Counted from the stretch's first letter, positions 33,824-61,002 are shown. The stretch: DNA of 61,896 bases from an uncultured Candidatus Saccharibacteria bacterium (GCA_965231155.1 OZ246418.1:746194-808089), one strand, 5' to 3'. Numbers and translations are program-made. The notes: generated by a model not told the origin, from the sequence alone.

Positions 33824-33856
33824 AAAATAAAAACCCCGAGTAGTAAGCTACTGGGG
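33824..33856 (-). terminator. intrinsic terminator of the 33848-34396 gene
   Basis: The minus strand reads CCCCAGTAG-cttA-CTACTCGGGG followed by TTTTTATTTT. The stop codon lies inside the stem. Confidence 0.65.
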
Positions 33857-34396
33857 CAAGGAAACTGGAATCTCAGGGTTGACGGCGATGAACACTTCCC
33901 GACCGAATTGCCAGGCTTCATAGCGAAGATATTCGATGGCACTACCAAGAGAGCCACCCCACTCATAGTTCGCCGGACTGACGTCATCCCTCATTGAGGA
34001 GAAGCGAAGAAGTTGACCTAGGGTGTAAGTGATGACTGGATTCTCTGGCAACGAAAAAGAAAATCGTTGCTGATCCTCTGATAACGACTCCCCTGACTGT
34101 CCTCGCTGGAATGACTCCCAGCAGGCGATTCGAATCATCTCGCCCAGAGTCGTCTCTTCAATCGGAAGTTGGAAGAGAAGAAATAGAACATCCATAGTTT
34201 CGTCCTGTCGCGGACAAACATGGGCGCCCATCCTCCTTCTCTCCCAGGTCACAAAGTAATCTCTCTGCTTCTGACTAGACGGCAGTCGAAGAAGCAAGAA
34301 CTGCTCCTCTTCGCCATCCTTCACGTATCCAAAAACAAACATCATGGCCTCCTGTGCTGCCAAAAAAATGCCACAAAAAAGAAATGTGGTCAACAT
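33848..34396 (-). CDS. hypothetical protein (start uncertain; possibly MMFVFGYVKDG)
   Basis: An ORF with its own terminator and intermediate GC; no motif recognised. Confidence 0.45.
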   Translation of the reverse strand: MLTTFLFCGIFLAAQEAMMFVFGYVKDGEEEQFLLLRLPSSQKQRDYFVTWERRRMGAHVCPRQDETMDVLFLLFQLPIEETTLGEMIRIACWESFQRGQSGESLSEDQQRFSFSLPENPVITYTLGQLLRFSSMRDDVSPANYEWGGSLGSAIEYLRYEAWQFGREVFIAVNPEIPVSLPQ

Positions 34397-39245: not shown

Positions 39246-39998
39246 TTAGGCCGCCACCTCGACGCTAGCCGACTTCATCCGCTGAATCCCTTCGAGGATC
39301 CCCGGGACGAAGCCGTTGTTGTCGCGGTCGAGTCCTGAAGTGGGCGTCTGTGCCAGCAACGATTCCTCGGACGGATCCGAGAAGTCGTACTGACTCATGA
39401 AGCGCCGCTCCAACAGCACGTAGTGGGCAGTGCCGTTCTGGATTCTCACTCCGAGATTCCAGATCACGACCTTGCCATTCGACTCGACCTTGACCAGGTA
39501 GCTCCCCAACTTGGCGTCGGGAATCTTGTCCTCGGTCTGCGCCTTCTTGTTGCGGTCGAGGACGACGAACGCACAGCCGTTGGTCGACGCCGGCAGTCCG
39601 AGATCGAACCCGCGGAAACGGTTACCGCCGACGTAGTAGGCGCGAAACGCCCCCTGCTCGGTCTTGGCCGTTACGGTCGGCGTGAGGATGTCCGTCCCCA
39701 CCCGCATCCGCCCCAGAACATCGAGGTGAATCGGAATGAATTCCTGGGACTCGCAGAATCCACGCTGGTCCGGAGTGGCGCGGGTTACGCCAGTCTCGGA
39801 AAGCGGAGCCACATTCATGGCCTGCCACTTGCCTTCGACTTCTTTCGGGACGAACTCGACCTTCCAGCCAGCCATCAGGAAACGAAGCCCCTGAGACTGC
39901 CGGATTTTCGACTCGTGAGCGAAGTACGTTTTACCGTCGTCGCCCTCGATGAAGAAAACGCCCTTGGTGTTGTTGGCGATCTTTACGGTACCTTTCAT
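39246..39998 (-). CDS. GC-rich hypothetical protein with an N-terminal cold-shock/OB-like domain (250 aa)
   Basis: GTVKIANNTKGVFFIEGDDGKTYFAHESKI resembles the CspA GTVKWFN..KGFGFI....D.FVH pattern. The remaining 180 aa are unrecognised. GAAGGAG precedes the ATG. Confidence 0.6.
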   Translation of the reverse strand: MKGTVKIANNTKGVFFIEGDDGKTYFAHESKIRQSQGLRFLMAGWKVEFVPKEVEGKWQAMNVAPLSETGVTRATPDQRGFCESQEFIPIHLDVLGRMRVGTDILTPTVTAKTEQGAFRAYYVGGNRFRGFDLGLPASTNGCAFVVLDRNKKAQTEDKIPDAKLGSYLVKVESNGKVVIWNLGVRIQNGTAHYVLLERRFMSQYDFSDPSEESLLAQTPTSGLDRDNNGFVPGILEGIQRMKSASVEVAA

Positions 39999-40095
39999 GA
40001 CTCGACTCCTTCTGGCTTACGACTCTACGCCGCAGCCTGTCTATAGGGTTGATGCCGCTTTTAACTAGTTGAGCACTTCTCGATGATCTGAATAT

Positions 40096-40123
40096 ATTAT
40101 AGCATTTATTATGCAAATGTCAA
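40096..40123 (-). promoter_or_regulatory. consensus sigma-70 promoter for 39246-39998
   Basis: TTGACA (40123-40118), 16-nt spacer, TATAAT (40101-40096); about 90-nt 5' UTR. Confidence 0.6.
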
Positions 40124-40161
40124 TAATAGGAAATCTTCCTACTACTGAATAGAAAACAAAG

Positions 40162-40197
40162 AAAAAAGGCCTAGCTGGATTGCTCCAGGCTAGGCCT
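40162..40197 (-). terminator. intrinsic terminator of 40225-41295
   Basis: The minus strand reads AGGCCTAGCCTGG-agcaat-CCAGCTAGGCCT followed by TTTTTT. Confidence 0.75.
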
Positions 40198-40224
40198 TGT
40201 GGGGTGGGGTTGTATCTGAAACCC

Positions 40225-41295
40225 CTAGTTCCTCCTTTCCGTAAGATTGATGAAAGCGCGACGCAGGTCGCGGTGGAATCGCGCCGCGAGACGCTGTTTC
40301 GCGGGCGGCAGGGCGCTGATGGCCGGCGCCTCGAAGCGCAGCCACTTGGCGGGGAGCCAAGTCCCAGATCGGACGATCTCGGTGTAGTCGATGTTGAAGG
40401 CTTCCAAGGGGGCAACGATCGCTCCCTTCTCCGTCTTCCGGACTTCGACAAGCAGCCCAAACGGCTGCCGGTACGCGACCCCGACCTTCTCGCCAGGGAC
40501 GTACAACGCGACCTTCCCCGCTTCGGCCTTCAAGGCGTCGAACAGGGTTGCCGTTGCCTTCTTCGCGAACGGCTGAAAGCCCGCACGGAACTTCTCGCGC
40601 TCCGCCTTCTGCCGAGCTTCCTCGGCATCACGTTCGGCCTTGATCTTCTCGAACTCGGCGTTCCAGAAGACATCGGCCTTCGCCTTCAACGTCTGGATGA
40701 CGAGGTCGCCACCCGGACAGTGAGAGATGAAGCGCTTCGCCTTGCCACCGAGAACCGGCAACTTGACCGTCAGGTGCTTGTTGGTCGGCGACACCTCGAA
40801 CACTTCCTGAAGGAAGGGCTGGTTGACGTAGGAGACGTCTCCCGGGCGAAGCCACTTGAGACACTCCGTGCCGAGATGGGCCAACTGTCGCAACCCGAAC
40901 ACGTTCGCCGGGTACATCTCGATGGCCGCGGTCATGAACTTCAGGACCATCAAGTTTCGCTTGATCGCGACCTCGGCCGGGGCGATCGTCGGTGGGTTCG
41001 GGTTGCGGGGATCGAAGTACTCACAGATCTGACCTCCCGCATCCTTTTCCCACTGCGCGATTTCCGGCAAGTAGGCATCCCGGACTTCGGCATCTTCTAG
41101 TCCGAGCTGGTCGGCGTTCTTCTCGAACTCCTCGCGTCCGACAAGCAGATTGTCAGCTACCGATTCCTCGATCTCCTTCCGGTCCTGCCTGCTCGGAACC
41201 CTGGAACGACTGATCGTCTTCTTCGGACGGGCAGTTTGGTTGTCCGCAGACGGTTCAGTAATTGCTGCTGCACGCAGAGATGTGACTTTCGACAT
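40225..41295 (-). CDS. GC-rich hypothetical protein (356 aa) with a central charged coiled-coil segment
   Basis: GAAGGAG lies 6 nt before the ATG, and the gene has its own promoter and terminator. No family recognised. Confidence 0.6.
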   Translation of the reverse strand: MSKVTSLRAAAITEPSADNQTARPKKTISRSRVPSRQDRKEIEESVADNLLVGREEFEKNADQLGLEDAEVRDAYLPEIAQWEKDAGGQICEYFDPRNPNPPTIAPAEVAIKRNLMVLKFMTAAIEMYPANVFGLRQLAHLGTECLKWLRPGDVSYVNQPFLQEVFEVSPTNKHLTVKLPVLGGKAKRFISHCPGGDLVIQTLKAKADVFWNAEFEKIKAERDAEEARQKAEREKFRAGFQPFAKKATATLFDALKAEAGKVALYVPGEKVGVAYRQPFGLLVEVRKTEKGAIVAPLEAFNIDYTEIVRSGTWLPAKWLRFEAPAISALPPAKQRLAARFHRDLRRAFINLTERRN

Positions 41296-45420: not shown

Positions 45421-45494
45421 TGGAGCGGGGTACGGGAATCGGACCCGCGTCTATAGCTTGGGAAGCTATCGTACTACCACTGTACTAACCCCGC
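45421..45494 (-). tRNA. tRNA-Gly (anticodon CCC), CCA encoded
   Basis: The reverse complement is GCGGGGTTAGTACAGTGGTAGTACGATAGCTTCCCAAGCTATAGACGCGGGTCCGATTCCCGTACCCCGCTCCA. Confidence 0.9.
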
Positions 45495-50436: not shown

Positions 50437-51999
50437 TTATTTTAAACTCAGGAGTTTGAGTACTTGCGCTCGATCAACGGCCCAAAGAAAAGTTCCGAGC
50501 CGAGGACCAGTATCTTTTCCGATAAGTAGGTGATAGACATCTTTAAAAAACTCTCGCTGTTCTTTTTTCAGTTCTGCCTCACTCATGTTCTGATCTTTTG
50601 GTATCTGATAGGCCAAGAATTCCAGGTCGGCAATACTGGCTTCCGGTTTGGCCGTAAGTTCTTCGTGTAAACGTTGAATGAATTTTTTTCGTTTATCATC
50701 CATTCCTTCAAAATACTCTTTGTTCGGTTGATCATTCAGAACCACCACTTCATCGGGGTTGTACTTCATTAACCAGTTTTTAGCCAATGGAAGTCGCTGG
50801 GAAATTATATTTTTGTCATAGTCCAGTCCGAGTTCCCTTAAGACGGTCGCCAACTTGTCCTCCTGCCACTGCACGATCTGACCAAAACCAACTAACTGGC
50901 GAAAAGAAACTGCTTGATTGATGCCATGATCTTTATCGTACTCGTCGTACTGTCGATAGATTTCAGAATCGAACGCTAGCTCGAACGACTGATCTGGATC
51001 CTTGCGCTGATACAACCACAACAAAAGTTTGGGGTCATAGATATCAAGTAAATCGAGCGGGGAAACCGCATTACCTTTTGAACCTGACATCTTCGCACCT
51101 AATCCCCTGATTCCCACGAACATGTAGCCAACAAATATCGGTGGAATAATTTTAAAAATATCTTCCGCCAGACGAGAGGACACGTCATAACTGCCTCCGG
51201 GAGAGGCATGATCAACTCCGCCAGGTTCAAAACGAACTTTTTCGTAGCCCCAGCGCATTGGCCAGTCAACTTTCCAGCTCAACTTGGCGATATGATCTTT
51301 CCTTAAATCCACCGTGTCTTCTTTCTTGGCTTCAGCACAGTAATAAGTCACGGTCATATCTCCATCGTATTTTAAGATCTTGGTCGAATCTTTCCCCGTG
51401 AACCGAGAGTAAATCGAAATCGGGTAGAAATTTTCGCGGTAGACATTAGCATCAATTCCTTTCTCCTTCATAGCTTTTTCGGTCATAAAGGAAAGGAGGA
51501 CGTCGGCAATCTTTTGTCGCTCATTCATTGCCAACTTGATGTGCTCATCATATGTTCCGCTCTCATAAAGTTCGGTCTGATTCCGATATTCGATCTCTAT
51601 ACCAAGTTTTTGCATGGCTTCCATAAACGGCTGCTGGAACCGTTCGGCGTAGGAAGATAACTCGCCAAATGGATCGGGAATCTTCGAAAGTGGTTTTCCA
51701 ATGTGTTCGGCAAAACTTTCTGGCACACCTGCGGGCACTTTGCGCAAGCGATCAAAGTTATCCCAAGAAAAAATCAGTCGGGCTTTCTTACCTTTTTCTT
51801 TGAGCGCCTCACGAACCATATGCGCGGTGATGACGTCGCGGAAGTTTCCAAAGTGCACCACGCCCGAAGGACTGATGCCCGCCGCCACGGTATAGAGATC
51901 TTCATCTTTGTGCCGTGCAAGAACCTCCTCGGCGACCGCCGAAGCCCAGGGTTTGCCGTTCTTCATAGTTGATAGATTGAATCGGTGAGAATCTGGCAT
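50437..51999 (-). CDS. lysS: lysine--tRNA ligase, class I
   Basis: A HIGH-like GVVHFGNFRDV motif, KMSGSKGN (KMSKS) and class I LysK architecture. Confidence 0.9.
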   Translation of the reverse strand: MPDSHRFNLSTMKNGKPWASAVAEEVLARHKDEDLYTVAAGISPSGVVHFGNFRDVITAHMVREALKEKGKKARLIFSWDNFDRLRKVPAGVPESFAEHIGKPLSKIPDPFGELSSYAERFQQPFMEAMQKLGIEIEYRNQTELYESGTYDEHIKLAMNERQKIADVLLSFMTEKAMKEKGIDANVYRENFYPISIYSRFTGKDSTKILKYDGDMTVTYYCAEAKKEDTVDLRKDHIAKLSWKVDWPMRWGYEKVRFEPGGVDHASPGGSYDVSSRLAEDIFKIIPPIFVGYMFVGIRGLGAKMSGSKGNAVSPLDLLDIYDPKLLLWLYQRKDPDQSFELAFDSEIYRQYDEYDKDHGINQAVSFRQLVGFGQIVQWQEDKLATVLRELGLDYDKNIISQRLPLAKNWLMKYNPDEVVVLNDQPNKEYFEGMDDKRKKFIQRLHEELTAKPEASIADLEFLAYQIPKDQNMSEAELKKEQREFFKDVYHLLIGKDTGPRLGTFLWAVDRAQVLKLLSLK

Positions 52000-52032
52000 A
52001 AGTCCCTGAATTCTAGCGGATTTTTAATAAAT

Positions 52033-52061
52033 AAAAAAGTCTCGCGATGTTCTGCGAGACT
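52033..52061 (-). terminator. intrinsic terminator of 52117-52533
   Basis: The minus strand reads AGTCTCGC-agaacatc-GCGAGACT followed by TTTTTTATTT. Confidence 0.7.
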
Positions 52062-52116
52062 AGTAGCAAGATTACCACTCTGAATGTACTACCGTCGCCT
52101 TCAGAGAGATGGGAGT

Positions 52117-52533
52117 TTAGGCGGCATCAGCGTCGGCGATGCGAGTCGGCAATGGACGAACGTACGGCGGGGGTATGCGCCCCTCGAGCACATCGATGAC
52201 GAGGTTAAACTCTGGCCCGAATCGGACCTGGGTATCACTACCCGCCTCCGTCCACCACTGACCAAGAACAGAAATGTTGGTCGTTGAACAACCCAACTCT
52301 TTCGCCAGCTTCATAAGAAGCGCTTCGTACTCATCCCTCTCTAAGGGGAAGGTCTGCGGTGCGAGAAACTGACAGACCCCCGGATACTGACGGGAAAGTT
52401 GCGCCCGACGGCTCATGGGCATACTCGCCCAATGAAGTCGCGCGTCAGCGATGCTCATCCCTGGAGGGAAGCCCCCAGCATCCAGGAACTGAGCAAAGCG
52501 CTGGTAGTCCCCGACCGTTTTCAACTTTTTCAT
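52117..52533 (-). CDS. GC-rich hypothetical protein (138 aa)
   Basis: GAAGGAAAG before the ATG, with its own promoter and terminator; no family recognised. Confidence 0.55.
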   Translation of the reverse strand: MKKLKTVGDYQRFAQFLDAGGFPPGMSIADARLHWASMPMSRRAQLSRQYPGVCQFLAPQTFPLERDEYEALLMKLAKELGCSTTNISVLGQWWTEAGSDTQVRFGPEFNLVIDVLEGRIPPPYVRPLPTRIADADAA

Positions 52534-52588
52534 ACCTGACTTTCCTTCTGTCGGGCTCCGAACCGACTAGACATTAGTTGCTGTCAAA

Positions 52589-52617
52589 TATTATGCAAAA
52601 TAATTCTACTTTGTCAA
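52589..52617 (-). promoter_or_regulatory. promoter for 52117-52533
   Basis: TTGACA (52617-52612), 16/17-nt spacer, CATAAT/ATAATA (52595-52589). Confidence 0.5.
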
Positions 52618-52620
52618 TAT

Positions 52621-52648
52621 AAAAAACCAGCCTATAAACTGGTTTTTT
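52621..52648. terminator. bidirectional terminator hairpin; terminates 52672-53025 and abuts the next promoter
   Basis: AAAAAACCAG-cctataaa-CTGGTTTTTT, a perfect 10-bp stem. Confidence 0.7.
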
Positions 52649-52671
52649 ATAAACAATATTCAAAGTAAAAA

Positions 52672-53025
52672 CTAATTACCTGACATCCCCGGAATAGAGT
52701 TCGCAGGCATAATATCAATCCACGCACCAGGAATCTCAAGATGTGGATGCTTCTCAAATGCCTTAGCTGCGATCTCTGGTGATTCAGCTTCGATAATTGA
52801 ATAGAGCATTATGTCGTTTTTCACGCTCGCGACCCCCTCTTTGGTCACTCTCTGAGTTGCACCTGCACCAGAAGTTTCTTTCAAAAGATCCTTGTGTTCA
52901 GTAGCCCACGCCTGCCACTCCTTCTGCATCTTTTCCTCCGCCTCCTTCCGTTCTTCCGCAGGCTTCTGCATCCACTCCGCCATCCCCGCTGCCGGCATCA
53001 TATAGAGAACAATAAATTTTTTCAT
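52672..53025 (-). CDS. hypothetical small protein (about 117 aa)
   Basis: The start is taken at MKKFIVLYMMP; family not recognised with confidence. Confidence 0.55.
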   Translation of the reverse strand: MKKFIVLYMMPAAGMAEWMQKPAEERKEAEEKMQKEWQAWATEHKDLLKETSGAGATQRVTKEGVASVKNDIMLYSIIEAESPEIAAKAFEKHPHLEIPGAWIDIMPANSIPGMSGN

Positions 53026-53066
53026 ACGGTAAAGTATACTCCACTTTCTTACCAAAACTAAATGAA

Positions 53067-53095
53067 TTGACTAAATTGATTATTCCTCGTATAAG
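53067..53095 (+). promoter_or_regulatory. promoter for 53123-53617
   Basis: TTGACT (53067-53072), 17-nt spacer, TATAAG (53090-53095). Confidence 0.55.
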
Positions 53096-53122
53096 TGAAT
53101 CAGTTTCAAGAAAGGAGGGGCA

Positions 53123-53617
53123 ATGGAATTCGGAAACGAGTTTCTAGCCCAATTCGTCGGCGGACAATTCGCCACGTCGGGGAGAAACAACACACTGGAA
53201 CTGTGGGGAGAGATCTCCACAATCACATACGATGGCAGGAGTCTTCGAGTCGAATTCACCTGGTTGGCACGACACGACCCAGTCAGGAAGATTTGGCGCG
53301 AAGAAGATCCCGTTCCATTCACGACACCACTGCAAATCGTCGGACAAGCACCGAACATGATCGGTAGGCCAGTTGTCTTGCATGGAGATGACCATTCCTT
53401 CTGTCTCCTGTCCCCGGACTGTCCGGAGCTCCTCGAAAAGCGAGAAGTTCTTCCCAGAAAGAGCGAAGATCTCGGAGCTCTCGCCAGAGAGCTCGAAACT
53501 CTTCCTCTCGAGGAACTGGATAGACGCGCGAACGATGCCCTATTCCACGAAGGACAGGAGTTGGTTGACGTCTATATCTCAGAATATCGGCGGAGAAACA
53601 TCCCTCTGCCCGCCTGA
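53123..53617 (+). CDS. GC-rich hypothetical protein (164 aa)
   Basis: AAAGGAGGGG lies 4 nt before the ATG and a terminator lies downstream; no family recognised. Confidence 0.55.
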   Translation: MEFGNEFLAQFVGGQFATSGRNNTLELWGEISTITYDGRSLRVEFTWLARHDPVRKIWREEDPVPFTTPLQIVGQAPNMIGRPVVLHGDDHSFCLLSPDCPELLEKREVLPRKSEDLGALARELETLPLEELDRRANDALFHEGQELVDVYISEYRRRNIPLPA

Positions 53618-53622
53618 ATCCC

Positions 53623-53650
53623 AGCGAATGATAAACTCATTCGCTTTTTT
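53623..53650 (+). terminator. intrinsic terminator of 53123-53617
   Basis: AGCGAATG-ataaact-CATTCGCT followed by TTTTTTATTT. Confidence 0.7.
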
Positions 53651-54242
53651 ATTTCCGTCGACGAGATTCGAGCCACTCCGGCACAGGACCAAACAAAATT
53701 GGACAGGTTGATATCTCGGTTCTCGTCACATCGAATATTTTTAAATAAAGACCGTCAGTACTATCAAAAATTGCTTCGCTCCATTCAAGTCCCAATCGAG
53801 ATGATATCTCTTGTACTGCCGTCTCATCTTTCCCTTCGACTTCGATAATCGAATCCAGCCAGGGCCAGGTGTCGAGCATAAGTTCGACGCCATCAAGTTT
53901 CCACAATTCGCGCTTTGTCTCCTGCTCTGATTTCACAATAAGTCCAATAGCCAGCATCAAGGCTTTGGTTTTCTCGTAGTCACTAACTACAACTTCAATT
54001 TCCACCATGCCGTCTATGGTCTCCGCATTTCGCTGCTTAAAAGTAAGTGTAATTTTATCGCCCTCGTCTCGCAACCGCACCCAGGCCGCTTTCTTATCAA
54101 GCCGAAGATCTTCGTAATCAAAAATAGTTCGGCGGATTGATCGCTCGGGATAAACCAACTCCCCTCCTAAACTCTTGAGTTTCTCCCGCAAAACATCGTG
54201 ATTTACACCAACAAATGTAGCTTCAATCTCTTTTTGCATCAT
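53649..54242 (-). CDS. CYTH-domain protein (class IV adenylate cyclase / triphosphatase family)
   Basis: An N-terminal EIEATF (ExExK-like) strand, and the RLRDEGDKITLTFK...E.E... pattern of the triphosphate tunnel fold. The start is taken at MMQKEIEA. Confidence 0.7.
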   Translation of the reverse strand: MMQKEIEATFVGVNHDVLREKLKSLGGELVYPERSIRRTIFDYEDLRLDKKAAWVRLRDEGDKITLTFKQRNAETIDGMVEIEVVVSDYEKTKALMLAIGLIVKSEQETKRELWKLDGVELMLDTWPWLDSIIEVEGKDETAVQEISSRLGLEWSEAIFDSTDGLYLKIFDVTRTEISTCPILFGPVPEWLESRRRK

Positions 54243-54291
54243 AGAAGCATACTCGGAGTTCCAAAATAAAAAAAGATCTCCAATTGGAGAT

Positions 54292-54573
54292 CTAGTTGAT
54301 AACTTCACACACGTTGCGTTCGAAAAGAAGTCCCGGCGCCTGACTTCCTCCGGGAGTCGCTCGCATATGCCGAAAAAAGTTTGCGTAATCCGGATCCTTC
54401 GGAGTCATCTGGGCAACCACCTGCTCATAACTCACCCAGTAGTACTTATCCGAAATCTGCTCCATCGGTTCATCGGGGTCAGGCTCGACTGTATCGAGCT
54501 CCATCCCAATGAATAACTTCCGCTGAGCCTCCGGATCGCCCGCCCGCGGCAGACCAGTAATTCTGACTTTCAT
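54292..54573 (-). CDS. GC-rich hypothetical protein (93 aa)
   Basis: Starts 3 nt after the stop of 54576-54764, so the two form a pair; no family recognised. Confidence 0.5.
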   Translation of the reverse strand: MKVRITGLPRAGDPEAQRKLFIGMELDTVEPDPDEPMEQISDKYYWVSYEQVVAQMTPKDPDYANFFRHMRATPGGSQAPGLLFERNVCEVIN

Positions 54574-54575
54574 GA

Positions 54576-54764
54576 CTAGTCCTTGAAAGCCGAGAACTTG
54601 AGATCTGTCGGCAGCTCACCGAACTCTGCCTCAAGCGCTCTGATCTTGACCCACATAGCATCCTCGCCACCAGGACCGGAGCAGTTCCAGCGTGGATCCT
54701 TCTCGCTCGAAAGATTCCAGCTGGTACTCCCAGTGTTCGCGTAGAAGTCAGAAATTGCACCCAT
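54576..54764 (-). CDS. GC-rich hypothetical protein (62 aa)
   Basis: TAAGGAGG (54778-54771) lies 6 nt before the ATG. Confidence 0.45.
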   Translation of the reverse strand: MGAISDFYANTGSTSWNLSSEKDPRWNCSGPGGEDAMWVKIRALEAEFGELPTDLKFSAFKD

Positions 54765-54787
54765 CGCAGACCTCCTTAGCTGTCAAG

Positions 54788-54816
54788 AAACTACCACTCC
54801 AATATCAAAGTGTCAA
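54788..54816 (-). promoter_or_regulatory. promoter for the 54764/54573 gene pair
   Basis: TTGACA (54816-54811), 17-nt spacer, TAGTTT (54793-54788). Confidence 0.45.
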
Positions 54817-54859
54817 AAAGGAAATAAAAAAAGCCCGTTGAGATTATCGCGGGGCAATA

Positions 54860-55222
54860 CTACTGACGGTACAAAGTAAATCCCTTCGCAAACCCAAACT
54901 CACGACGAACACGAAAACTTCCAGAGGCGAATAGATCTTCGATCGCTTTCTGGTCCTCGGCACTGATTGGGCAGGAGTACTTTCCCGCAGAGGAAAACCC
55001 CCAAACCCCAGTTCCGCTCTCCGACTCACCCATCAAGACTCCACCGTGAACGAAAGTGATGGACCCTTCCTCGAACTTAACGTCACCTTTCCCAAGATTG
55101 ATGGCGGTTGGAAAGGAAACGCAAAACGCCTCCGCCTCATGTTGTCCACATCCAGTCAGACTGAAACCAGTCACAGTTTCTCCGTCCCGCTGGACTTTGA
55201 ATTCAATACGTCGAGTGTCCAT
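54860..55222 (-). CDS. GC-rich hypothetical protein (120 aa)
   Basis: CAGGAGGG before the ATG; no family recognised. Confidence 0.5.
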   Translation of the reverse strand: MDTRRIEFKVQRDGETVTGFSLTGCGQHEAEAFCVSFPTAINLGKGDVKFEEGSITFVHGGVLMGESESGTGVWGFSSAGKYSCPISAEDQKAIEDLFASGSFRVRREFGFAKGFTLYRQ

Positions 55223-55247
55223 TGATCACCCTCCTGTTCTGCCGCTG

Positions 55248-55276
55248 AAACTATCACCTCTCTCCTAGCGTGTCAA
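55248..55276 (-). promoter_or_regulatory. promoter for 54860-55222
   Basis: TTGACA (55276-55271), 17-nt spacer, TAGTTT (55253-55248). This is the same -10 as the neighbouring cassette. Confidence 0.45.
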
Positions 55277-55374
55277 AATAAAAACCCCGGCGAGATCGTC
55301 GCTGGGATTTTCAATTACAAAATAATTAATCGGTGGATCATCTTTATTCTAAAACATATTAGATTAAACAATGT

Positions 55375-55746
55375 CTAAAAACTTCTCCTAATTTGATTAA
55401 ACTTCCAAAAAACAAGAGCACCTATTGTAGATAATGCAATCCCAGAAACAATGCTTTCAAGAGGTATACTGATTCCCAATATAAATGGTTGGAAGGTGCC
55501 TATTATCCCAAAAATCCAAAGAGCAAAAATCATCTTATCGCTAAGAAACTTCGCTGTTTTCAACTGTTGTTTCTTTTTTGAAGGAAGCCCTTCCAAAAAA
55601 GGAGAGAGGAAATAAAAACTAATCAAAAATAAGGAAATTACAACCACAGTCCCCAACCAACTTCTTGCAAAATCAGGAAAGAACAAAGCATTCACAAGAA
55701 TGAGAAGGAGGGGCGCAAAATACGGAATAGCGTATTTTGATTTCAT
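55375..55746 (-). CDS. hypothetical 4-TM membrane protein (AT-rich)
   Basis: Hydrophobic profile only. Confidence 0.55.
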   Translation of the reverse strand: MKSKYAIPYFAPLLLILVNALFFPDFARSWLGTVVVISLFLISFYFLSPFLEGLPSKKKQQLKTAKFLSDKMIFALWIFGIIGTFQPFILGISIPLESIVSGIALSTIGALVFWKFNQIRRSF

Positions 55747-55794
55747 TTTTCCATTATATCAAATAACAGAAACCCTGCCCAAGGGTATCAAAAT

Positions 55795-55821
55795 AAAAAA
55801 GCCACTAGTTTTTCTAGTGGC
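55795..55821 (-). terminator. intrinsic terminator of the histidine-phosphatase gene
   Basis: The minus strand reads GCCACTAG-aaaaa-CTAGTGGC followed by TTTTTTATTTT. Confidence 0.7.
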
Positions 55822-56366
55822 TATAGATCAAGCTCGTGAATTGAAGCATTGGGGATATGAATCATCCTCTCCAACCCTCCGTAGAAATAATAAAGACACC
55901 TCATCGCTCCGCCATGCGAAACTACAAGGGGTTTCTTGAAGGGCTGCGTCTTCGCATAAGCAATGAAACTGTCGAGGCGAGCCCGAACATCTCCTATCGA
56001 TTCCCCTCCATAGGGCCGGTAGTCATATTCCTGCTCCCCATCAGCGATCCTTAGGTCGAAAGACGCGCCACTCAGGATCTGCATCTCCTCCCAGCTCCTG
56101 CCGGCCAGAAACCCGAAATCTCGTTCCTGGAGTCCGTCGTGAAATTCGATCGGAATACCCAGTGCTGGGCTAAGAATTTCTCCGGTTTCCCGTGCACGAG
56201 CTAGCGGTGAGGAAAAGATGATGTCAAAACCTTTCCCCCGAAGCTGAGGAATCAACGCTCTCGCCTGATCCCTACCCCGATCGTTCAAAGACTTATCGAC
56301 CCTTCCCGCCAGCCTGCGGTCCAAATTATCCTCAGTCTCTCCGTGACGGACGATCGTGAATTTCAT
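55821..56366 (-). CDS. histidine phosphatase family protein (phosphoglycerate-mutase-like)
   Basis: The RHGETEDN catalytic motif at the N-terminus and a downstream SHGG motif. Confidence 0.85.
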   Translation of the reverse strand: MKFTIVRHGETEDNLDRRLAGRVDKSLNDRGRDQARALIPQLRGKGFDIIFSSPLARARETGEILSPALGIPIEFHDGLQERDFGFLAGRSWEEMQILSGASFDLRIADGEQEYDYRPYGGESIGDVRARLDSFIAYAKTQPFKKPLVVSHGGAMRCLYYFYGGLERMIHIPNASIHELDL

Positions 56367-56486
56367 ATTTTCCTCTCTTGCTGGCTACAGCTTCCATTAT
56401 AAATTGAGAGATGTCAAAACTCCCAGGCGATAGACCGCTCCTCCTGAGTTCTTCTTTATAGTAGTAAGTATCTTTGTAGCTCGAGC

Positions 56487-56960
56487 TTAAAAGAACTTGA
56501 AGGAGGAAATGATCTGATTCGTCACCTCCATATCCTCTGTCGGACGGACATAGATTCTAAGAGTGCTGCTTCCACGCTGTATGAAATAAGCATTCTGATT
56601 CTGAATAGCACTCAATCCTGCAAATGTGGCTTCCGTACCAGTAATTGGAGAATCTGCGGTGACAATGGCTTCATCAATATCAATAATTGATCCACTCTCT
56701 GATATCCCACTTGAAGCATAGTAAACACTTAGGTTCTTGCTCTGAGAAGTTGCGGATACAAAACCATTAGGATCATACCCTCCTACCTTCGCATCTTTCG
56801 GAGACTGAAACTCAAAACCATACGTGTCGTTTCGGTAAGTCTGCCAATCAGATTGAGTAACTGGGGACTGACCCAATGGCATCGCTGGACGAGAAGTGTA
56901 ATACCAAACACCAGCTCCTAAAATTAATAAAACTACCAGGATAATAAGTATTTTTTTCAT
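56487..56960 (-). CDS. hypothetical signal-anchored secreted protein (paralog-like to 12719-13432)
   Basis: MKKILIILVVLLILGAG is a TM segment, and WQTYRNDTYGFEFQSPKD matches WKLYRNKEYGFELSYPKD in the other protein. Confidence 0.6.
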   Translation of the reverse strand: MKKILIILVVLLILGAGVWYYTSRPAMPLGQSPVTQSDWQTYRNDTYGFEFQSPKDAKVGGYDPNGFVSATSQSKNLSVYYASSGISESGSIIDIDEAIVTADSPITGTEATFAGLSAIQNQNAYFIQRGSSTLRIYVRPTEDMEVTNQIISSFKFF

Positions 56961-57052
56961 ACTAGTAAGTATACCAAACCAACCGAACCACATACGCCTC
57001 TCTCGGTCAAACCGGAAAATAAAAAAGCCGCGTAGATACCTAGCGACTTTGA

Positions 57053-57211
57053 TTAGCAGGAATAGTGCTCGGCCATGTAGCGAGCAACTCCTTCGCCGGA
57101 GTTGCCGTTAGCCAAACAGGCTTCCCGATAGATGTCTCATTGATCGCGCTTGCCCGATTCGGCCCAATACTTGATCTGTTCGTGAAGACTCCGAGGAACA
57201 CTAAGCTTCAC
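57053..57211 (-). pseudogene. ribbon-helix-helix-like small ORF interrupted by an in-frame TGA (57139-57137)
   Basis: GTG-KLSVPRSLHEQIKYWAESGKRDQ-TGA-DIYREACLANGNSGEGVARYMAEHYSC-TAA. The beta-strand plus two-helix pattern resembles CopG/Arc-type proteins. A terminator-like hairpin with a T-run follows. Confidence 0.3.
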
Positions 57212-57258
57212 GTTTTTTCCGTTGCAATCAGGAAAACTGACAACGATTGGAGTTTCAT

Positions 57259-57273
57259 GGAAGGACGAAGGGT
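57259..57273. repeat. direct repeat GGAAGGACGAAGGGT (copy 1)
   Basis: An exact 15-nt match to 57944-57958. Confidence 0.8.
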
Positions 57274-57295
57274 ATGATGAAAATCGATTCAATAT

Positions 57296-57332
57296 AAAAA
57301 GAAAAGGCCTTGCGATTGTTTCGCAAAGCCTT
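57296..57332 (-). terminator. intrinsic terminator of 57335-57856
   Basis: The minus strand reads AAGGCTTTGCGA-aacaa-TCGCAAGGCCTT (one mismatch) followed by TTCTTTTT. Confidence 0.65.
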
Positions 57333-57334
57333 GA

Positions 57335-57856
57335 TTACTTCTTCTGTCCGGCGATCTCTTCGTTGATCTCGTCGACCACCTCCTGGACAATCCCGGCGAA
57401 ATCCGCCGGAAAAATCGCTCGGGCGATCTCGGAAATGTACTTCTGGATGATGAGGTACACAAACGGCGACTGACCGACCAATGGATGATTGATGGGCTTG
57501 CCGGTGAAACCATTCACGCCATTCTCGAGGTCGTAAAGAGCAAGTGTCGCCCCCATGATGAACCCGTGCGGAACGAGTTCACCGTTTACGTAGTCAGCGA
57601 GGAATTCCCCGAATTTGTAGATGACCTCAGTCTGACCAGGTAGGTGCTCGCGAAGGTTTCGGAGACAATCCCGGATCACACCGTCAGGCGCCGCAACTGT
57701 GGCCGTGGCCGTCTTCAGAGCTTTCCGTGGATTCTTCTCGTCAAGGAATGGCATGGAGGGTTGGCGTCCGCGCTTCCCCTTTTCATGAGCGTGATCCACC
57801 ACCTTCTCGGCGTAGGTCGTCGGAAAAACCGGCAACGAATCGAGATTTCTCTTCAT
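57335..57856 (-). CDS. GC-rich hypothetical protein (173 aa)
   Basis: AGAGAGGA before the ATG, with its own promoter and terminator; no family recognised. Confidence 0.55.
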   Translation of the reverse strand: MKRNLDSLPVFPTTYAEKVVDHAHEKGKRGRQPSMPFLDEKNPRKALKTATATVAAPDGVIRDCLRNLREHLPGQTEVIYKFGEFLADYVNGELVPHGFIMGATLALYDLENGVNGFTGKPINHPLVGQSPFVYLIIQKYISEIARAIFPADFAGIVQEVVDEINEEIAGQKK

Positions 57857-57911
57857 CGAGCTGTCCTCTCTTTTTGGGTTTGCGAATTGAATCGCTTCAA
57901 ACGCTAATTTT

Positions 57912-57940
57912 TTTATAAAGCATTATTATAATATTGTCAA
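57912..57940 (-). promoter_or_regulatory. promoter for 57335-57856
   Basis: TTGACA (57940-57935), 17-nt spacer, TATAAA (57917-57912). Confidence 0.5.
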
Positions 57941-57943
57941 ACC

Positions 57944-57958
57944 GGAAGGACGAAGGGT
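57944..57958. repeat. direct repeat GGAAGGACGAAGGGT (copy 2), part of a 23-nt junction sequence at 57936-57958
   Basis: An exact 15-nt match to 57259-57273. The adjacent GTCAAACCGGAA (57936-57947) recurs at 57006-57017. Confidence 0.8.
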
Positions 57959-58027
57959 GCGGCAAAAATCCTTTATCATAAAGCTTTAACATACCGAACC
58001 AGCAAAAACTCACCCCCCGAATGTCTA

Positions 58028-58918
58028 CTAATTTATTAGTACGGGATCTTCGCCAATCAGTAGTAATTTAGATTTGAATTCTCTTTTTAACTCATTGATT
58101 TCTCGATTGATGTTTGGCCTAAAGTATTCAGTCATTTTTTGTGCAGTTTCTACAGAGAAAGGTTTTGAGAAGCTGAATGTTTTTTTCCACTTCCTAATTC
58201 CCATATCTATTCTTGTCCGGATCGCAACTTTTGCCTGAACAAGTATTCTGAGGTAAACAGGAATATTATTGCCAAAAACTTGAAGATCTAAAAAATTTTC
58301 AAACTCTAAAAGATTATCTCTCAAGGTTTGATTATGAACGTTTGGTGTATTTAACTTCATAAGGCCGATCTGAGTATTGAGTGTCAAAGTTCTATCAAAT
58401 TGTCTACTAATATCTTCTAAGAGAATAGGCATCTCTTGAGAAATACTAATCACTTGCAACATGAGGTTTTCTAAGTATGCGCTTCCGGTGGTTTGTTTAA
58501 ATAAGTCCTTATCGAAAGTAAAAGTCCATGATAGGGGTACAAAAACTTGACCTACAGAGATTTGTCCTAAAGCATTCTCTTTTTCTACTCTTTCCTTAAG
58601 TCGTTTTAAATTATTATCTTTGAATGTGTGGAGCATGGTGTCTATTTCTATTAAATTATTAATTGCTGTGACCAAATTCTTCTCTAATAAAAGCAAGTAC
58701 TCTTCTTGATCATTCTTTTTTCTATACCAGGTTGTTATAAAAAATACGGCCAAAGGAGTGGCTGCTCCAATTAATGCTCCGATTAATTCTTGCCATTCGT
58801 AAACAATATCTTTGATCTCATTAGGGTTGATCAGGCCACAACAAATCAAAAGGATAAGTATGCACCCCGTTATTGATAGAGTAATTATTCCTGTAGTCCA
58901 TGTCGGCAGCTTCTTCAT
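58028..58918 (-). CDS. AT-rich hypothetical protein: 2 N-terminal TM segments plus a ~220-aa helical cytoplasmic domain
   Basis: Hydrophobic N-terminus. Sample line 58981-59040 in the adjacent gene has 19/60 G+C, lower than the backbone. No family recognised. Confidence 0.6.
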   Translation of the reverse strand: MKKLPTWTTGIITLSITGCILILLICCGLINPNEIKDIVYEWQELIGALIGAATPLAVFFITTWYRKKNDQEEYLLLLEKNLVTAINNLIEIDTMLHTFKDNNLKRLKERVEKENALGQISVGQVFVPLSWTFTFDKDLFKQTTGSAYLENLMLQVISISQEMPILLEDISRQFDRTLTLNTQIGLMKLNTPNVHNQTLRDNLLEFENFLDLQVFGNNIPVYLRILVQAKVAIRTRIDMGIRKWKKTFSFSKPFSVETAQKMTEYFRPNINREINELKREFKSKLLLIGEDPVLIN

Positions 58919-58922
58919 AGAA

Positions 58923-59603
58923 CTAACGAGGTTTTTGAAGTCTAATTTTGTAGTAAGAAAATAAAAGAAAAATAAAGTACAAAGTTAAATAAATTACCCC
59001 CCAACTTTCAAGATTTTGGAATAAGTTCCAAAATCTTCCCACATAGATGGGAAGGATGCTGGCCAAGGCTGCTAAAGGTACTCCCGAAATTGCCGCGTAG
59101 ATGAAGGGGGAGATTTTTTCTTTTAGAGTATCTATTTTATTGGATATAAAAATGAAAGAAAAAATTAAAACAAGAGGATAATGATCTTGCACAAATGTAT
59201 TTAACGGCTTTTCATACAGTGCAATAAAATAATTCCAAAGGTTTATTGAAAACCAAATATCAACTGCAACTAGTCCCCATGCGAGTCCGCTACCAAACCA
59301 CATTTCCTTAACACTTTTATTAATAAAAGAAAGAAAAGTACTGGTTAAAATAAAAGTGACCAGTATCATGAGTGAAAACCAAAAAAGCTTGAGATTCACG
59401 AGGGCACTATTAGCATCGGAATTTTCTGCTGACGGGATACCTAGAAAGAATGATCCTACGACAAAAATAAAACCGGTTATCTCTAATATGGGTTTTTTCT
59501 CACGCCAAAATTTTTCGAGCATATCAGACATATGCCCATAGCATACGCCTTTCATGAAGGTTCGCAAGCCAGAAAGATTGCTCGAGAAAATGATCAGGTA
59601 CAA
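58923..59603 (-). CDS. AT-rich hypothetical polytopic membrane protein
   Basis: About 6 TM segments. The start is uncertain, and the gene lies 4 nt upstream of the next gene. Confidence 0.55.
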   Translation of the reverse strand: MYLIIFSSNLSGLRTFMKGVCYGHMSDMLEKFWREKKPILEITGFIFVVGSFFLGIPSAENSDANSALVNLKLFWFSLMILVTFILTSTFLSFINKSVKEMWFGSGLAWGLVAVDIWFSINLWNYFIALYEKPLNTFVQDHYPLVLIFSFIFISNKIDTLKEKISPFIYAAISGVPLAALASILPIYVGRFWNLFQNLESWGVIYLTLYFIFLLFSYYKIRLQKPR

Positions 59604-59697
59604 GGCTTATCCGAGCACCGGAAAGAGCCGTACAAACGTACGGCGATTGAGGAGAAAAGGATATAACGTAGCAGATGATTATTTAATCGAGCAAGAT

Positions 59698-60156
59698 TTA
59701 CTCGATCTTGGAGATGGTATAGGTAATATCCCCCTTCGGCGTCATCACCTTCGCCTCCTCGCCCACACGGCGTCCTAAAAAGGCCTTGCCCATTGGTGAC
59801 TCATTCGAGATCATACCTTCGGCTGGATTGGACTCGCTGGAACCAACCAAATGATAGGTGAAACTCTTGCCATTTGTTTTGACCGTAAAGGTGCAGCCCA
59901 CAGAGACGGTTTCGCCTCCGGTGGTCTTCTTGATAATAGAAGCATTCTTGATGACATCCTCAAGCTCCATGATCCGTTTTTCAACGGCGGCCTGCTCATC
60001 CTTAGCTTCGCTATACTCGGAGTTCTCAGAGAGATCGCCAAACTCCTTAGCCCGCTTTAGGCGCTCAGCCACTCGGCGTCGGCCTTCGTGGATTAAATCA
60101 TTCAATTCATCCTTCAACTCCTCGAGACGCTCCTTGCTTACATAAAATTTATCCAT
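59698..60156 (-). CDS. greA: transcription elongation factor GreA
   Basis: N-terminal coiled coil with AKEFGDLSENSEYSEAKDEQ and a C-terminal FKBP-like domain. Confidence 0.95.
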   Translation of the reverse strand: MDKFYVSKERLEELKDELNDLIHEGRRRVAERLKRAKEFGDLSENSEYSEAKDEQAAVEKRIMELEDVIKNASIIKKTTGGETVSVGCTFTVKTNGKSFTYHLVGSSESNPAEGMISNESPMGKAFLGRRVGEEAKVMTPKGDITYTISKIE

Positions 60157-60280
60157 AGGTGGATTAAAAAAATAAAAAGTGAGAAAGTGGATTAGTAAGG
60201 GGCTAACACGGAATGCCTTAATTTTAAGGGCAGAAACCCCAAAAGTAAAACAAAGTTATAAAGACCGTTTTAGTGAGAAA

Positions 60281-60586
60281 TTAGAGCGAAACACCCAACT
60301 TCTTCCTAATACGACTGCCGGACATATCCCGGACAAAGTAAAGTTTCGAACGATGTGGTTTCTTTGGGCTAGAGATAATCTCCACCTTGGTAATCATTGG
60401 GGTGTTGATTGGATAGACCTTCTCTACGCCAACGGCGGCTACCATGGCGCGGACGGTAAAGGTACCACCAACCTCATTGCCATGCTTTCGGGCAATCACC
60501 AGACCCTCAAAACGCCCACCTTCTTTCTCGTGGACACGAATCCTGGCTCCGGCTTTGATTTGTTCTAATACTTTTGCGTCAATCAT
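60281..60586 (-). CDS. rplS: 50S ribosomal protein L19
   Basis: The pattern GARIRVHEKEGGRFEGLVIARKHGNEVGGTFTVR....GVEKVYPINTP. Confidence 0.9.
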   Translation of the reverse strand: MIDAKVLEQIKAGARIRVHEKEGGRFEGLVIARKHGNEVGGTFTVRAMVAAVGVEKVYPINTPMITKVEIISSPKKPHRSKLYFVRDMSGSRIRKKLGVSL

Positions 60587-60618
60587 GTTTTTTTATATAA
60601 ATAGGTGATTTCAGGGCC

Positions 60619-61002
60619 TTAGGAGGCCTTGGCCATCAATTGTTTCACTAATTTGATGACTTCGTCAAGTGAGGCATGAACTTTTACGAAATATCCCGCC
60701 GCTCCCAGACTCTTGGCTTTTTCAACATCGCTATCCTGACTGAGGTTGGACATGATGATTACCGGTATCCGATTATACTGCGGATCTGAGGCCAGAGTCT
60801 GTAAAAGCTCTAGTCCGGAGATGCGAGGCATAATCAGATCGAGAATCACTACTTGAGGCCGCATCGTTTCCAACATATGAAGCGCCTCCTCGCCATCAAA
60901 CGCCTGTTTGACAGTCAGGCCCTCTTTCTCTAGCCGACTTCGCAGAAGAGGCGAGAGAAAACGGTCGTCTTCAATAATGAATACGTTGACAGTTTCAATC
61001 AT
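60619..61002 (-). CDS. single-domain response regulator (receiver only)
   Basis: VFIIEDD...VILDLIMPRISG...MSNL...K; no output domain. Confidence 0.85.
   Translation of the reverse strand: MIETVNVFIIEDDRFLSPLLRSRLEKEGLTVKQAFDGEEALHMLETMRPQVVILDLIMPRISGLELLQTLASDPQYNRIPVIIMSNLSQDSDVEKAKSLGAAGYFVKVHASLDEVIKLVKQLMAKAS

Follow-up and report, generated by a model that had tools for sequence, protein, structure and literature searches.

A variable block of small predicted promoter-gene-terminator units between greA and lysS in a compact uncultured bacterial genome

The region between the genes greA and lysS was analyzed in the genome of an uncultured bacterium (G000), where a 7.6 kb block of small genes (52024-59574) was found. 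The window, that is, the whole stretch of DNA that was analyzed (61,896 nucleotides, GCA_965231155.1 OZ246418.1:746194-808089), corresponded to the final 61.9 kb of the single 808,089-bp contig of G000 (GC 45.3%), and positions are those of the window unless the contig is named. Both ends of the contig were located inside a 16S rRNA gene, which also formed the end of the window. The DUF4012 protein, the class I lysyl-tRNA synthetase (LysRS) and the small genome presumably assign the organism to Patescibacteria. Gene calling yielded 814 genes in G000, and terminators of the hairpin-plus-T-run type were scanned for in the whole genome using ViennaRNA folding energies (dG). The assembly was judged to be sound, since contigs of four bioreactor metagenome runs spanned the region and were identical to the window.

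The original prediction had placed a head-to-tail array of single-gene cassettes at 52033-57958. This span was found to be too small, as the AT-rich membrane-protein genes next to greA belonged to the same block. The features of the block and its flanks, with open reading frames (ORFs) named by their length in amino acids, were the following:

59698-60156 (-), greA, with its own terminator downstream
59574-59612 (-), left boundary element GGATAAGCCTTGTACCTGATCATTTTCTCGAGCAATCTT, directly past the greA terminator
58028-59603 (-), a pair of AT-rich genes for membrane proteins of 226 aa and 296 aa, GC 0.34-0.35
57936-57958 (-), composite repeat A.B ACCCTTCGTCCTTCCGGTTTGAC (23 nt), the TTGAC of which is the -35 of the predicted o173 promoter
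57304-57856 (-), o173 cassette: 173-aa ORF (57335-57856, GC 0.548) and strong terminator (57304-57332, dG -17.7)
57040-57292 (-), RHH-like pseudogene, promoter and N-terminus lost, in-frame TGA
57006-57050 (-), weak terminator (dG -9.9), then repeat B TTCCGGTTTGAC (57006-57017), a relic -35
56487-56960 (-), gene of a secreted or membrane-anchored protein, GC 0.41, leaderless-type promoter
55821-56366 (-), coding sequence (CDS) of a histidine phosphatase (His_Phos_1, E 5e-43), terminator at 55800-55822 (dG -13.5)
55286-55781 (-), unit of a protein with four transmembrane segments (4-TM): CDS 55375-55746, GC 0.35, bidirectional terminator 55286-55310
55231-55278 (-), P module copy 1, TTTTGACAC-N12-GTGATAGTTT-CAGCGG-CAG-AAC-AGGAG, the predicted o120 promoter and a leader bearing a Shine-Dalgarno (SD) motif
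54833-55222 (-), o120 cassette body: 120-aa ORF (54860-55222) and T1 hairpin GCCCCGCGATAATCTCAACGGGC (54833-54855)
54772-54818 (-), P module copy 2, 5' of o62, a chimera
54274-54764 (-), two-gene unit of o62 (54576-54764) and o93 (54292-54573), terminator 54274-54293
53649-54251 (-), CYTH-domain gene (PF01928, E 4e-12, profile match)
53123-53645 (+), o164: ORF 53123-53617, GC 0.535, SD motif AAGGAGG, terminator 53623-53645
52620-53025 (-), o117: ORF 52672-53025, leaderless-type promoter, bidirectional terminator
52038-52617 (-), o138 unit: promoter TTGACA-N16-CATAAT (52617-52590), ORF 52117-52533 (GC 0.576), terminator 52038-52061 (dG -12.5)
52005-52024 (-), right boundary AAAATCCGCTAGAATTCAGG, the leaderless-type lysS promoter
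50437-51999 (-), class I lysS, the other flank of the block

All the genes that had been predicted were recovered, namely the ORFs of 138, 62+93, 120, 173 and, on the plus strand, 164 aa, together with the 117-aa, CYTH-domain, 4-TM, histidine phosphatase and secreted proteins. The GC-rich ORFans alternated with AT-rich or intermediate genes as described, the gene GC swinging by turns between 0.35 and 0.58 (genome, 0.453). An autonomous promoter-ORF-terminator build was recognized by sequence for o173, the histidine phosphatase, the 4-TM protein (tm123), o120, o62+o93, o117 and o138. The description as single-gene cassettes was right for most units, but o62+o93 was a two-gene unit.

The predicted o173 promoter consisted of TTGACA (57940-57935), a spacer of 17 nt and TATAAA (57917-57912). 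The 4-TM unit carried a putative promoter of a second type, TGGGCA-N17-TGnTATAAT (55781-55753), located 6 nt 5' of the ATG, and its mRNA was therefore predicted to be leaderless. An extended -10 element, TGGTATACT, 7 nt 5' of the ATG, was predicted to be the actual promoter of the secreted-protein gene. The CYTH-domain gene shared a convergent hairpin that had no T-run on the CYTH strand. Repeat A (57259-57273) occupied the point where the promoter and the N-terminus of the RHH-like gene had vanished, and the TGA of this remnant (57137-57139) corresponded to a TGG (Trp) codon in the intact 77-aa homolog of a relative, L048.

All four terminator-to-TTGACA junctions quoted in the original prediction were found on the minus strand at their expected places: CTGGTTTTTTATATTGACA at 52630-52612, CCGGGGTTTTTATTTTGACA at 55290-55271, CGGGCTTTTTTTATTTCCTTTTTGACA at 54837-54811 and GCGGCTTTTTTATTTTCCGGTTTGACC at about 57031-57005. 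The claim that a terminator is followed by a promoter at each of them held for the presence of the strings, but the hairpins of two were weak, and the TTGACC at 57010 had no -10 element at a usable spacing and looked like a relic. The pair of TTGACA-N17-TAGTTT elements was also located, at 55276-55248 (5' of o120) and at 54816-54788 (5' of o62).

Further, the locus was compared with those of the sister species G001 (locus L004) and of other relatives (loci L048, L087 and L095). In 15 other loci, class I lysS immediately followed greA; among them were contigs of other uncultured bacteria (L006, L049, L051) and many Clostridia. The adjacency of greA and lysS is therefore read from the sequences as the outgroup and probably ancestral state, the block having apparently been inserted in this genus. 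A block of 4-11 kb parted the two genes in G000, G001, L087 and L095, bordered by RR-rplS-greA at one end and by lysS-DUF4012 at the opposite end. The L048 contig stopped short of greA and displayed only the lysS-proximal part of such a block. In a further genome (G002), lysS occurred in an unrelated context and provided no synteny information.

The block was hypervariable. The 63 genes of the five blocks fell into 48 families, eight of which were represented in at least two genomes and none in all. For 8 of the 13 genes of the G000 block, no counterpart was found in any other of the five blocks; the 226-aa and 296-aa membrane-protein genes were present in none of the four related ones. Gene content was not conserved, the genes of the four relatives with the same flanks being almost entirely different, which supported the proposal of a hotspot where small modular units accumulate.

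The boundaries of the block were sharp and conserved. In the closest relative, L087 (RR 99%, rplS 97%, greA 97% and LysRS 90% identical), the DNA was 95% identical to that of G000 from the 16S rRNA end to 59574, and the similarity was back at 52024, 25 nt 5' of the lysS ATG; only about 520 nt were in common between these points. The left element GGATAAGCCTTGTACCTGATCATTTTCTCGAGCAATCTT (39 nt), otherwise absent from G000, was kept in G001 (L004 4908-4946) and in L087 (1781-1819), and the similarity to the relatives ceased at its 3' end. The L087 block comprised 18 genes and had only o120 (84%) and o62 (66%) in common with G000. The o120 DNA was 83% identical between the two, although the left flank was 95% identical.

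In G001 (LysRS 79% identical), about 10 kb lay between greA and lysS and contained orthologs of o164, o117 and o138 (31-73% identical), the o164 ortholog being 43% identical. The o117 orthologs of G001 and L048 were 73-76% identical. The block of L048 (LysRS 80% identical) held o117 and the intact 77-aa RHH-like gene, and that of L095 had eight genes. By eye, and not by library scan, we take the G001 block to include a possible HEPN-type gene, HicAB, three NYN-like genes and several ORFans. Likewise, the L048 genes presumably include histidine-phosphatase-like, HD-like, deoxyribosyltransferase-like and Ndk-like genes and a zinc-ribbon ORFan.

A segment of 1,539 nt with three cassettes was 91.7% identical at the nucleotide level between L087 and L095, both its ends being at terminator T-tails, whereas the greA, rplS and RR of these two loci were merely 71-78% identical. 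This segment appears, from the sequence comparison, to have been exchanged horizontally between diverged lineages.

The flanks themselves were not uniform. The synonymous divergence (dS) between G000 and L087 across 50437-61002 was 0.11 for RR, 0.34 for greA, 0.45 for rplS and 2.06 for lysS; therefore, the two flanks of the islet have different histories. At the place of the class I lysS of G000, G001, L048 and L087, L095 (6113-7627) carried a class II lysS of 483 aa within the same RR-rplS-greA...DUF4012 frame, the LysRS class having been swapped in place. The genes of both classes were preceded by the same leaderless-type promoter AAATCCGCTAGAAT. Class I LysRS occurred in only 3 of 31 related genomes.

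Two kinds of promoter-like modules recurred at the junctions. The P module (~50 nt) had the form TTTTGAC-N14-GTGRTAKTTT-N5-7-CAG-N3-AGGAG followed by 6-10 nt and ATG, and both TAGTTT promoters of G000 were members of this family. Six copies (two in G000, three in L087, one in L048) preceded unrelated ORFs and had 27 invariant alignment columns; a seventh was found in G001 and a diverged copy in L095. In G000 the exact P pattern occurred twice, both times in this block, and a search of 400 further genomes from the order did not find it. In viral contigs, no copy was found of the P module or of the 36-mer of G001 described below. The second promoter type, TTGAYA...GGGTTTCTG...TGnTATAMT, was situated 6-8 nt from the ATG, which predicts leaderless transcripts, and recurred 5' of AT-rich or intermediate genes of G000 and L087. 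The T1 hairpin GYCCCGCGATAATMTCAACGGGC was present once in G000 and twice in L087, and a T2 hairpin twice in L087.

A diverged P-like module, TTGACC-N14-GTGGCATTTT-TTTGG-CAG-CAC-AGGAG, was noted outside the islet at 33848-34393 (-). It preceded a 165-aa ORF (GC 0.50) closing with a hairpin and T-run, i.e., a solitary cassette of the same build.

The breakpoints were mapped by a global alignment of G000 55330-54560 with L087 9600-10760. The collinear part of the two sequences spanned P, o120 and T1 and ended after the 5' half of the following P. At this point L087 had an extra 315 nt, which completed the interrupted P and continued with a 74-aa ORF, T2 and the 5' half of another P, the third; the collinearity returned in the 3' half of P and went on through o62. 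The extra cassette was bracketed by a near-identical 27-nt direct repeat, GTGGTATTTTTTYGGCAGTAAAGGAGG, inside P. Copy 2 of the P module in G000 was accordingly chimeric, its 5' half equivalent to the P before the 74-aa gene of L087 and its 3' half to the P before the o62 homolog. On this alignment, G000 and L087 differ by an indel of one cassette with both breakpoints within P. A second rearrangement is visible around o173. There the A.B repeat ACCCTTCGTCCTTCCGGTTTGAC was split: its first 15 nt recurred at 57273-57259 and its last 12 nt at 57017-57006, so that its parts surround the cassette of o173 and the RHH-like remnant.

The G001 block (L004, G001:C6, 4500-11160) contained 11 copies of a 36-nt repeat, ATGCAAGAATCCATCGGGAAAACGAAAAATGATTCYGT. 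All copies were on one strand whatever the orientation of the cassette gene, one per cassette, and the repeat was absent from the rest of the 1.1-Mb G001 genome as well as from G000, L087 and L048. As single-stranded DNA, the 36-mer folded no better than shuffled sequences (z -0.56 and -0.10). It had no Rfam match, and Rfam gave nothing credible in the G001 array. Parts of the cassettes beside the 36-mers were duplicated within the array. Between the greA stop codon and the first cassette of G001, a segment of ~125 nt (L004 3733-3857) was bracketed by a 13-nt inverted repeat, TCTTGAATCCCGG ... CCGGGATTCAAGA.

The density of terminators was compared with that of the whole genome by counting non-coding terminators with dG <= -7 in 6-kb windows. 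The 6-kb region contained 12 of them, against a genome mean of 1.76 (sd 1.93), and at least 12 were found in just 0.19% of the windows. A terminator followed within 21 nt by a perfect TTGACA occurred eight times in G000, three of them in this region, which makes up 0.75% of the genome. A perfect TTGACA within 80 nt upstream was carried by 29 of the 444 genes having at least 40 nt of non-coding sequence upstream (nine genes in the reverse-complement control), and four of the 29 were located here. The junction pattern is not a generic boundary consensus, because these genome-wide counts far exceed the background; the P module was also confined to the locus. A generic consensus scan of 50-62 kb gave values not above those of shuffled sequences for promoter-like (20 versus 15.6 +/- 4.4) and terminator-like sites (15 versus 12.0 +/- 3.3), and the tail T(4-8)AT(2-4) was generic, being present in 59 of 134 G000 terminators.

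Only one other G000 locus, C1:262000-271000 (outside the window), was comparably rich in terminators (13 per 6 kb). A run of very short genes (248-261 kb) adjoins it, and both the histidine phosphatase and the secreted protein have paralogs in the vicinity.

The search for mobility genes in G000 revealed one tyrosine recombinase (PF00589), Xer-like, at contig positions 357727-358647, about 440 kb from the block, and one serine recombinase (81422-81856) at the other end of the contig, together with one RecA and one ComEC. Profile scans gave no PF00589 match in the window around the block. G001 had two PF00589 matches on another contig, and all its recombinases were off the array contig. The block itself had no integrase, no terminal direct repeats and no tRNA (the nearest at 45421-45494), and Rfam and tRNA scans detected no RNA gene in it. 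The best PHROGs match was no better than E 0.016. In G000, PADLOC produced only two sub-threshold matches, both for one membrane protein, which indicates no clustering of defence genes. The hairpins at the junctions were solely G+C-rich terminator stems with T-runs, and no attC-type hairpins were found. The absence of a linked integrase, attC-like repeats and transposase noted in the original prediction was in this way confirmed as regards a linked recombinase; none of the repeats was attC-like, but repeats do exist in the form of the promoter and terminator modules.

The possibility that the ORFans are not genes was dropped. The ratio of nonsynonymous to synonymous divergence (omega, dN/dS) between G000 and L087 in the annotated frame was 0.22 for o120 and 0.17 for o62; in three of four shifted-frame controls it was 1.27-2.14, the o62 +2 frame giving 0.48. 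For o120 and o62, dN was about tenfold the values of greA and rplS. When 1.84 billion representatives were searched in a full HMMER pass, 45 relatives of o120 were retrieved, mostly of 105-145 aa. An AlphaFold2 model built with 26 relatives in the alignment was a confident alpha/beta fold (predicted local distance difference test, pLDDT, 96.9; predicted template modelling score, pTM, 0.88), and a Foldseek search of the PDB gave no similar solved fold (best E 0.058, TM-score about 0.35). On the codon comparison, o120 is evidently under purifying selection. The o120 family consists of uncharacterised proteins of ~120 aa (45 representative clusters), one member of which stands alone between dprA and serS on a contig of 58% GC.

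Only three homologs were found for o173, 48-55% identical over a conserved C-terminal domain (LRNLREHMP...GFTGKPI...DFA). Both homolog contigs that were examined (L088 and L091) were archaeal, of DPANN type, one carrying an archaeal-type uS10 (143 bits) and the other a thermosome (763 bits). The o173 model was confident only in the C-terminal domain (mean pLDDT 68.7) and had no PDB match. No homolog of o93 was present in 5.8e9 proteins. Scans with Pfam, NCBIfam, PHROGs and PADLOC profiles recognized nothing in the block besides CYTH and His_Phos_1, and tblastn detected no ORFan paralogs in G000.

The 3' end of the G000 16S rRNA, ...GTGCGTGGAACAATTAAAC, had no CCUCC anti-SD tail. A subgroup of Parcubacteria has been described as lacking the anti-SD (PMC9297842). 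Strong SD motifs at -18 to -4 preceded 32 of the 814 G000 genes, distributed as 16 of 51 genes with GC of at least 0.52 and 16 of 763 others (Mann-Whitney p = 2e-11), and the positional peak at -20 to -11 was confined to the GC-rich class. This SD-bearing GC-rich class includes o120, o62 and o164; another example in the window is 39246-41295. Within the islet, most AT-rich and intermediate genes had a -10 element 6-10 nt 5' of the ATG. Recent import as the origin of the GC-rich genes was considered and rejected: orthologs only 31-43% identical keep a high GC (o138, 0.576/0.614; o164, 0.535/0.532), and the archaeal homologs of o173 are AT-rich (0.33-0.36, versus 0.55 here). As one idea, GC-biased gene conversion at a recombination hotspot might explain the GC-rich SD genes.

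Based on all comparisons, it was considered probable that the locus is an integrase-free flexible islet turning over by recombination at its flanks and junction modules. We proposed that it is a lineage-specific islet (52024-59574, between greA and lysS) within one Parcubacteria genus, made of units that would resemble the morons of phages. Morons are reportedly autonomous promoter-gene-terminator units, a description ascribed to Juhala et al. in 2000. Each unit would comprise one gene, occasionally two, with a sigma-70-type promoter and an intrinsic terminator, both predicted, and would be gained, lost, duplicated or replaced by recombination. The joints would lie in sequences common to the units, i.e., the T-rich terminator tail, the -35 TTGAC and, in one subset, the P module, while larger segments would be traded between lineages via the conserved flanks. 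Terminators would abut the next promoters because a junction would be both an insulator and a recombination joint. The DNA would most likely enter via the competence machinery (ComEC) and be integrated by RecA; this route, as well as the direction of each event, is what we infer from the gene content and the alignments.

Several observations weigh against such an explanation. The hairpins of two of the four junctions were weak (dG -7.7 at 54832 and -9.9 at 57026, the others being -12 to -18), and the activity of promoters and terminators is predicted from the sequence. The four metagenome runs represented one clonal arrangement, in which ongoing turnover was not seen. Stretches of microhomology of 10-27 nt are short for RecA acting by itself. 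Breakpoints in repeats are also compatible with a site-specific enzyme acting there, and the 11 same-orientation 36-nt repeats of G001 resemble dedicated sites more than chance homology. Finally, the P module might be kept for regulation, recombination being a side effect.

Hence, other explanations were weighed. In an integron-like capture platform, dedicated double-stranded junction sites would be recombined, for the insertion and excision of cassettes, by an enzyme with its gene elsewhere (the Xer-like tyrosine recombinase, the serine recombinase or some unknown one), namely the 36-mer in G001 and P or the T-tail/-35 core in G000 and L087. We regard this as unlikely, although the 36-mers, in one orientation, one per cassette and found nowhere else in the G001 genome, speak for it, the cassette indel of L087 is exact, and the two parts of the split A.B repeat have TTCC in common where they join, like an occupied site beside an empty one. 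No recombinase was linked to the array in G000 or encoded on the array contig of G001, the 36-mer forms no single-stranded hairpin (z -0.6), the junction sequences are unlike between sister lineages (36-mer versus P, with no 36-mer in G000), and the duplicated cassette parts at the G001 repeats fit unequal crossing-over. It is quite unlikely, in our estimation, that the shared modules just co-express accessory genes and that the variability arose by deletion and drift of a larger ancestral block. The invariance of the -35, the -10-like block and AGGAG in all P copies is what selection for expression predicts, and o117, o138 and o164 near lysS are old residents, 31-73% identical in G001. Loss alone, however, cannot yield 48 families in five blocks or a 92% identical segment between lineages with flanks of 71-78%; greA and lysS are adjacent in outgroups, and incongruence between cassettes and flanks was seen once, in the L087/L095 segment.

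A prophage or mobile-element remnant would account for the moron-like architecture and mixed composition and, if our reading by eye is right, for the HicAB, possible HEPN-type and three NYN-like genes of G001. The PHROGs and PADLOC matches were no better than noise, however, the ends had no integrase, tRNA or att-like direct repeats, and the modules were missing from the viral contigs, so that this origin appears very unlikely. Finally, in a compact genome of 808 kb, terminators and promoters might lie close together at every boundary, and the locus would be nothing special. The common T-rich tail (59 of 134 terminators) and the simple consensus scan, which was not above shuffles, agree with this. 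It is nevertheless scarcely credible, and was refuted by the genome-wide counts and the comparison of relatives: the terminator density was in the top 0.2% of windows, 0.75% of the genome held three of eight terminator-TTGACA junctions and four of 29 upstream TTGACA, and the modules were locus-specific.

The genomes of the candidate phyla radiation (CPR, Patescibacteria) are tiny and contain few classical mobile elements. On the question of how these bacteria acquire and test new genes, the locus offers a sequence-resolved example of turnover, with a fixed housekeeping site, self-insulated one-gene units, junction breakpoints and segment exchange between lineages. There is a small chance that Patescibacteria possess an undescribed gene-capture platform with no linked integrase, the enzyme being encoded elsewhere; single-gene cassettes that express themselves would be stacked, excised and shuffled by such an enzyme at one fixed chromosomal site, and the platform would be analogous to the integron in function but made of other parts. 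The locus supplies testable parts, namely the ~50-nt promoter-leader module, the 36-nt repeat specific to its array and the few recombinases encoded elsewhere in these genomes. It is also of interest for translation studies, through SD-bearing GC-rich genes despite a 16S rRNA with no anti-SD, and for the evolution of aminoacyl-tRNA synthetases, through the in-place exchange between lysS genes of class I and class II downstream of a common promoter.

The islet shares with integrons and with clusters of attC sites lacking integrases (CALIN) an array of small, unrelated genes in one orientation, with variation from strain to strain, and a repeat at each junction, the clearest being the G001 36-mer, which is as array-specific as Vibrio cholerae repeats (VCRs). 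The traits that define an integron or a CALIN were lacking, however: the G000 array had no adjacent IntI-type integrase, and attC single-strand hairpins were not found at the cassette boundaries. Integron cassettes are mostly promoterless and driven by a common Pc, whereas most units here have their own promoter-like element and putative terminator. Unlike in integrons and CALIN, sister lineages have different junction sequences. No integron-like arrays in CPR were revealed by a literature search. With phage morons, the units have in common a promoter, one ORF and an intrinsic terminator, with a composition often unlike that of the neighbours, but here they are on a bacterial chromosome with no phage genes, many of them head to tail. 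The tRNA or tmRNA site, integrase and flanking direct repeats of a classical genomic island were absent. In being an accessory block that is strain-specific and has a fixed place on the chromosome, the locus is similar to the flexible islands or hypervariable regions known from streamlined genomes.

For Patescibacteria, reports already exist of genomic islands, of competence and of exchange with DPANN archaea (PMC12455944). The likeness extends to exchange mostly among close relatives and to families common to CPR and DPANN, whereas the islands there were predicted by composition-based tools, and junction modules or cassette breakpoints are not described in the passages searched. Another counterpart is the minimal mobile element (MME) of Neisseria (Saunders & Snyder 2002; Snyder et al. 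2007), in which two conserved genes enclose whole-gene cassettes that differ between strains and are exchanged by homologous recombination (PMC3082526). Both systems have conserved flanking genes, strain-differing whole-gene cassettes and no mobility genes of their own, and exchange via transformation and homologous recombination, as proposed for MMEs, is presumed here. An MME site holds one or a few genes, whereas 13-18 are stacked here, the cassettes being separated by repeated locus-specific promoter/terminator modules that coincide with breakpoints; the host here is an uncultured CPR bacterium, the competence of which is deduced solely from ComEC. The locus appears to fit the published definition of an MME in its flanks and cassette swapping, with homologous recombination as the presumed step. 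It departs from the MMEs in the stacking of moron-like units, the terminator-promoter junctions themselves being the breakpoints.

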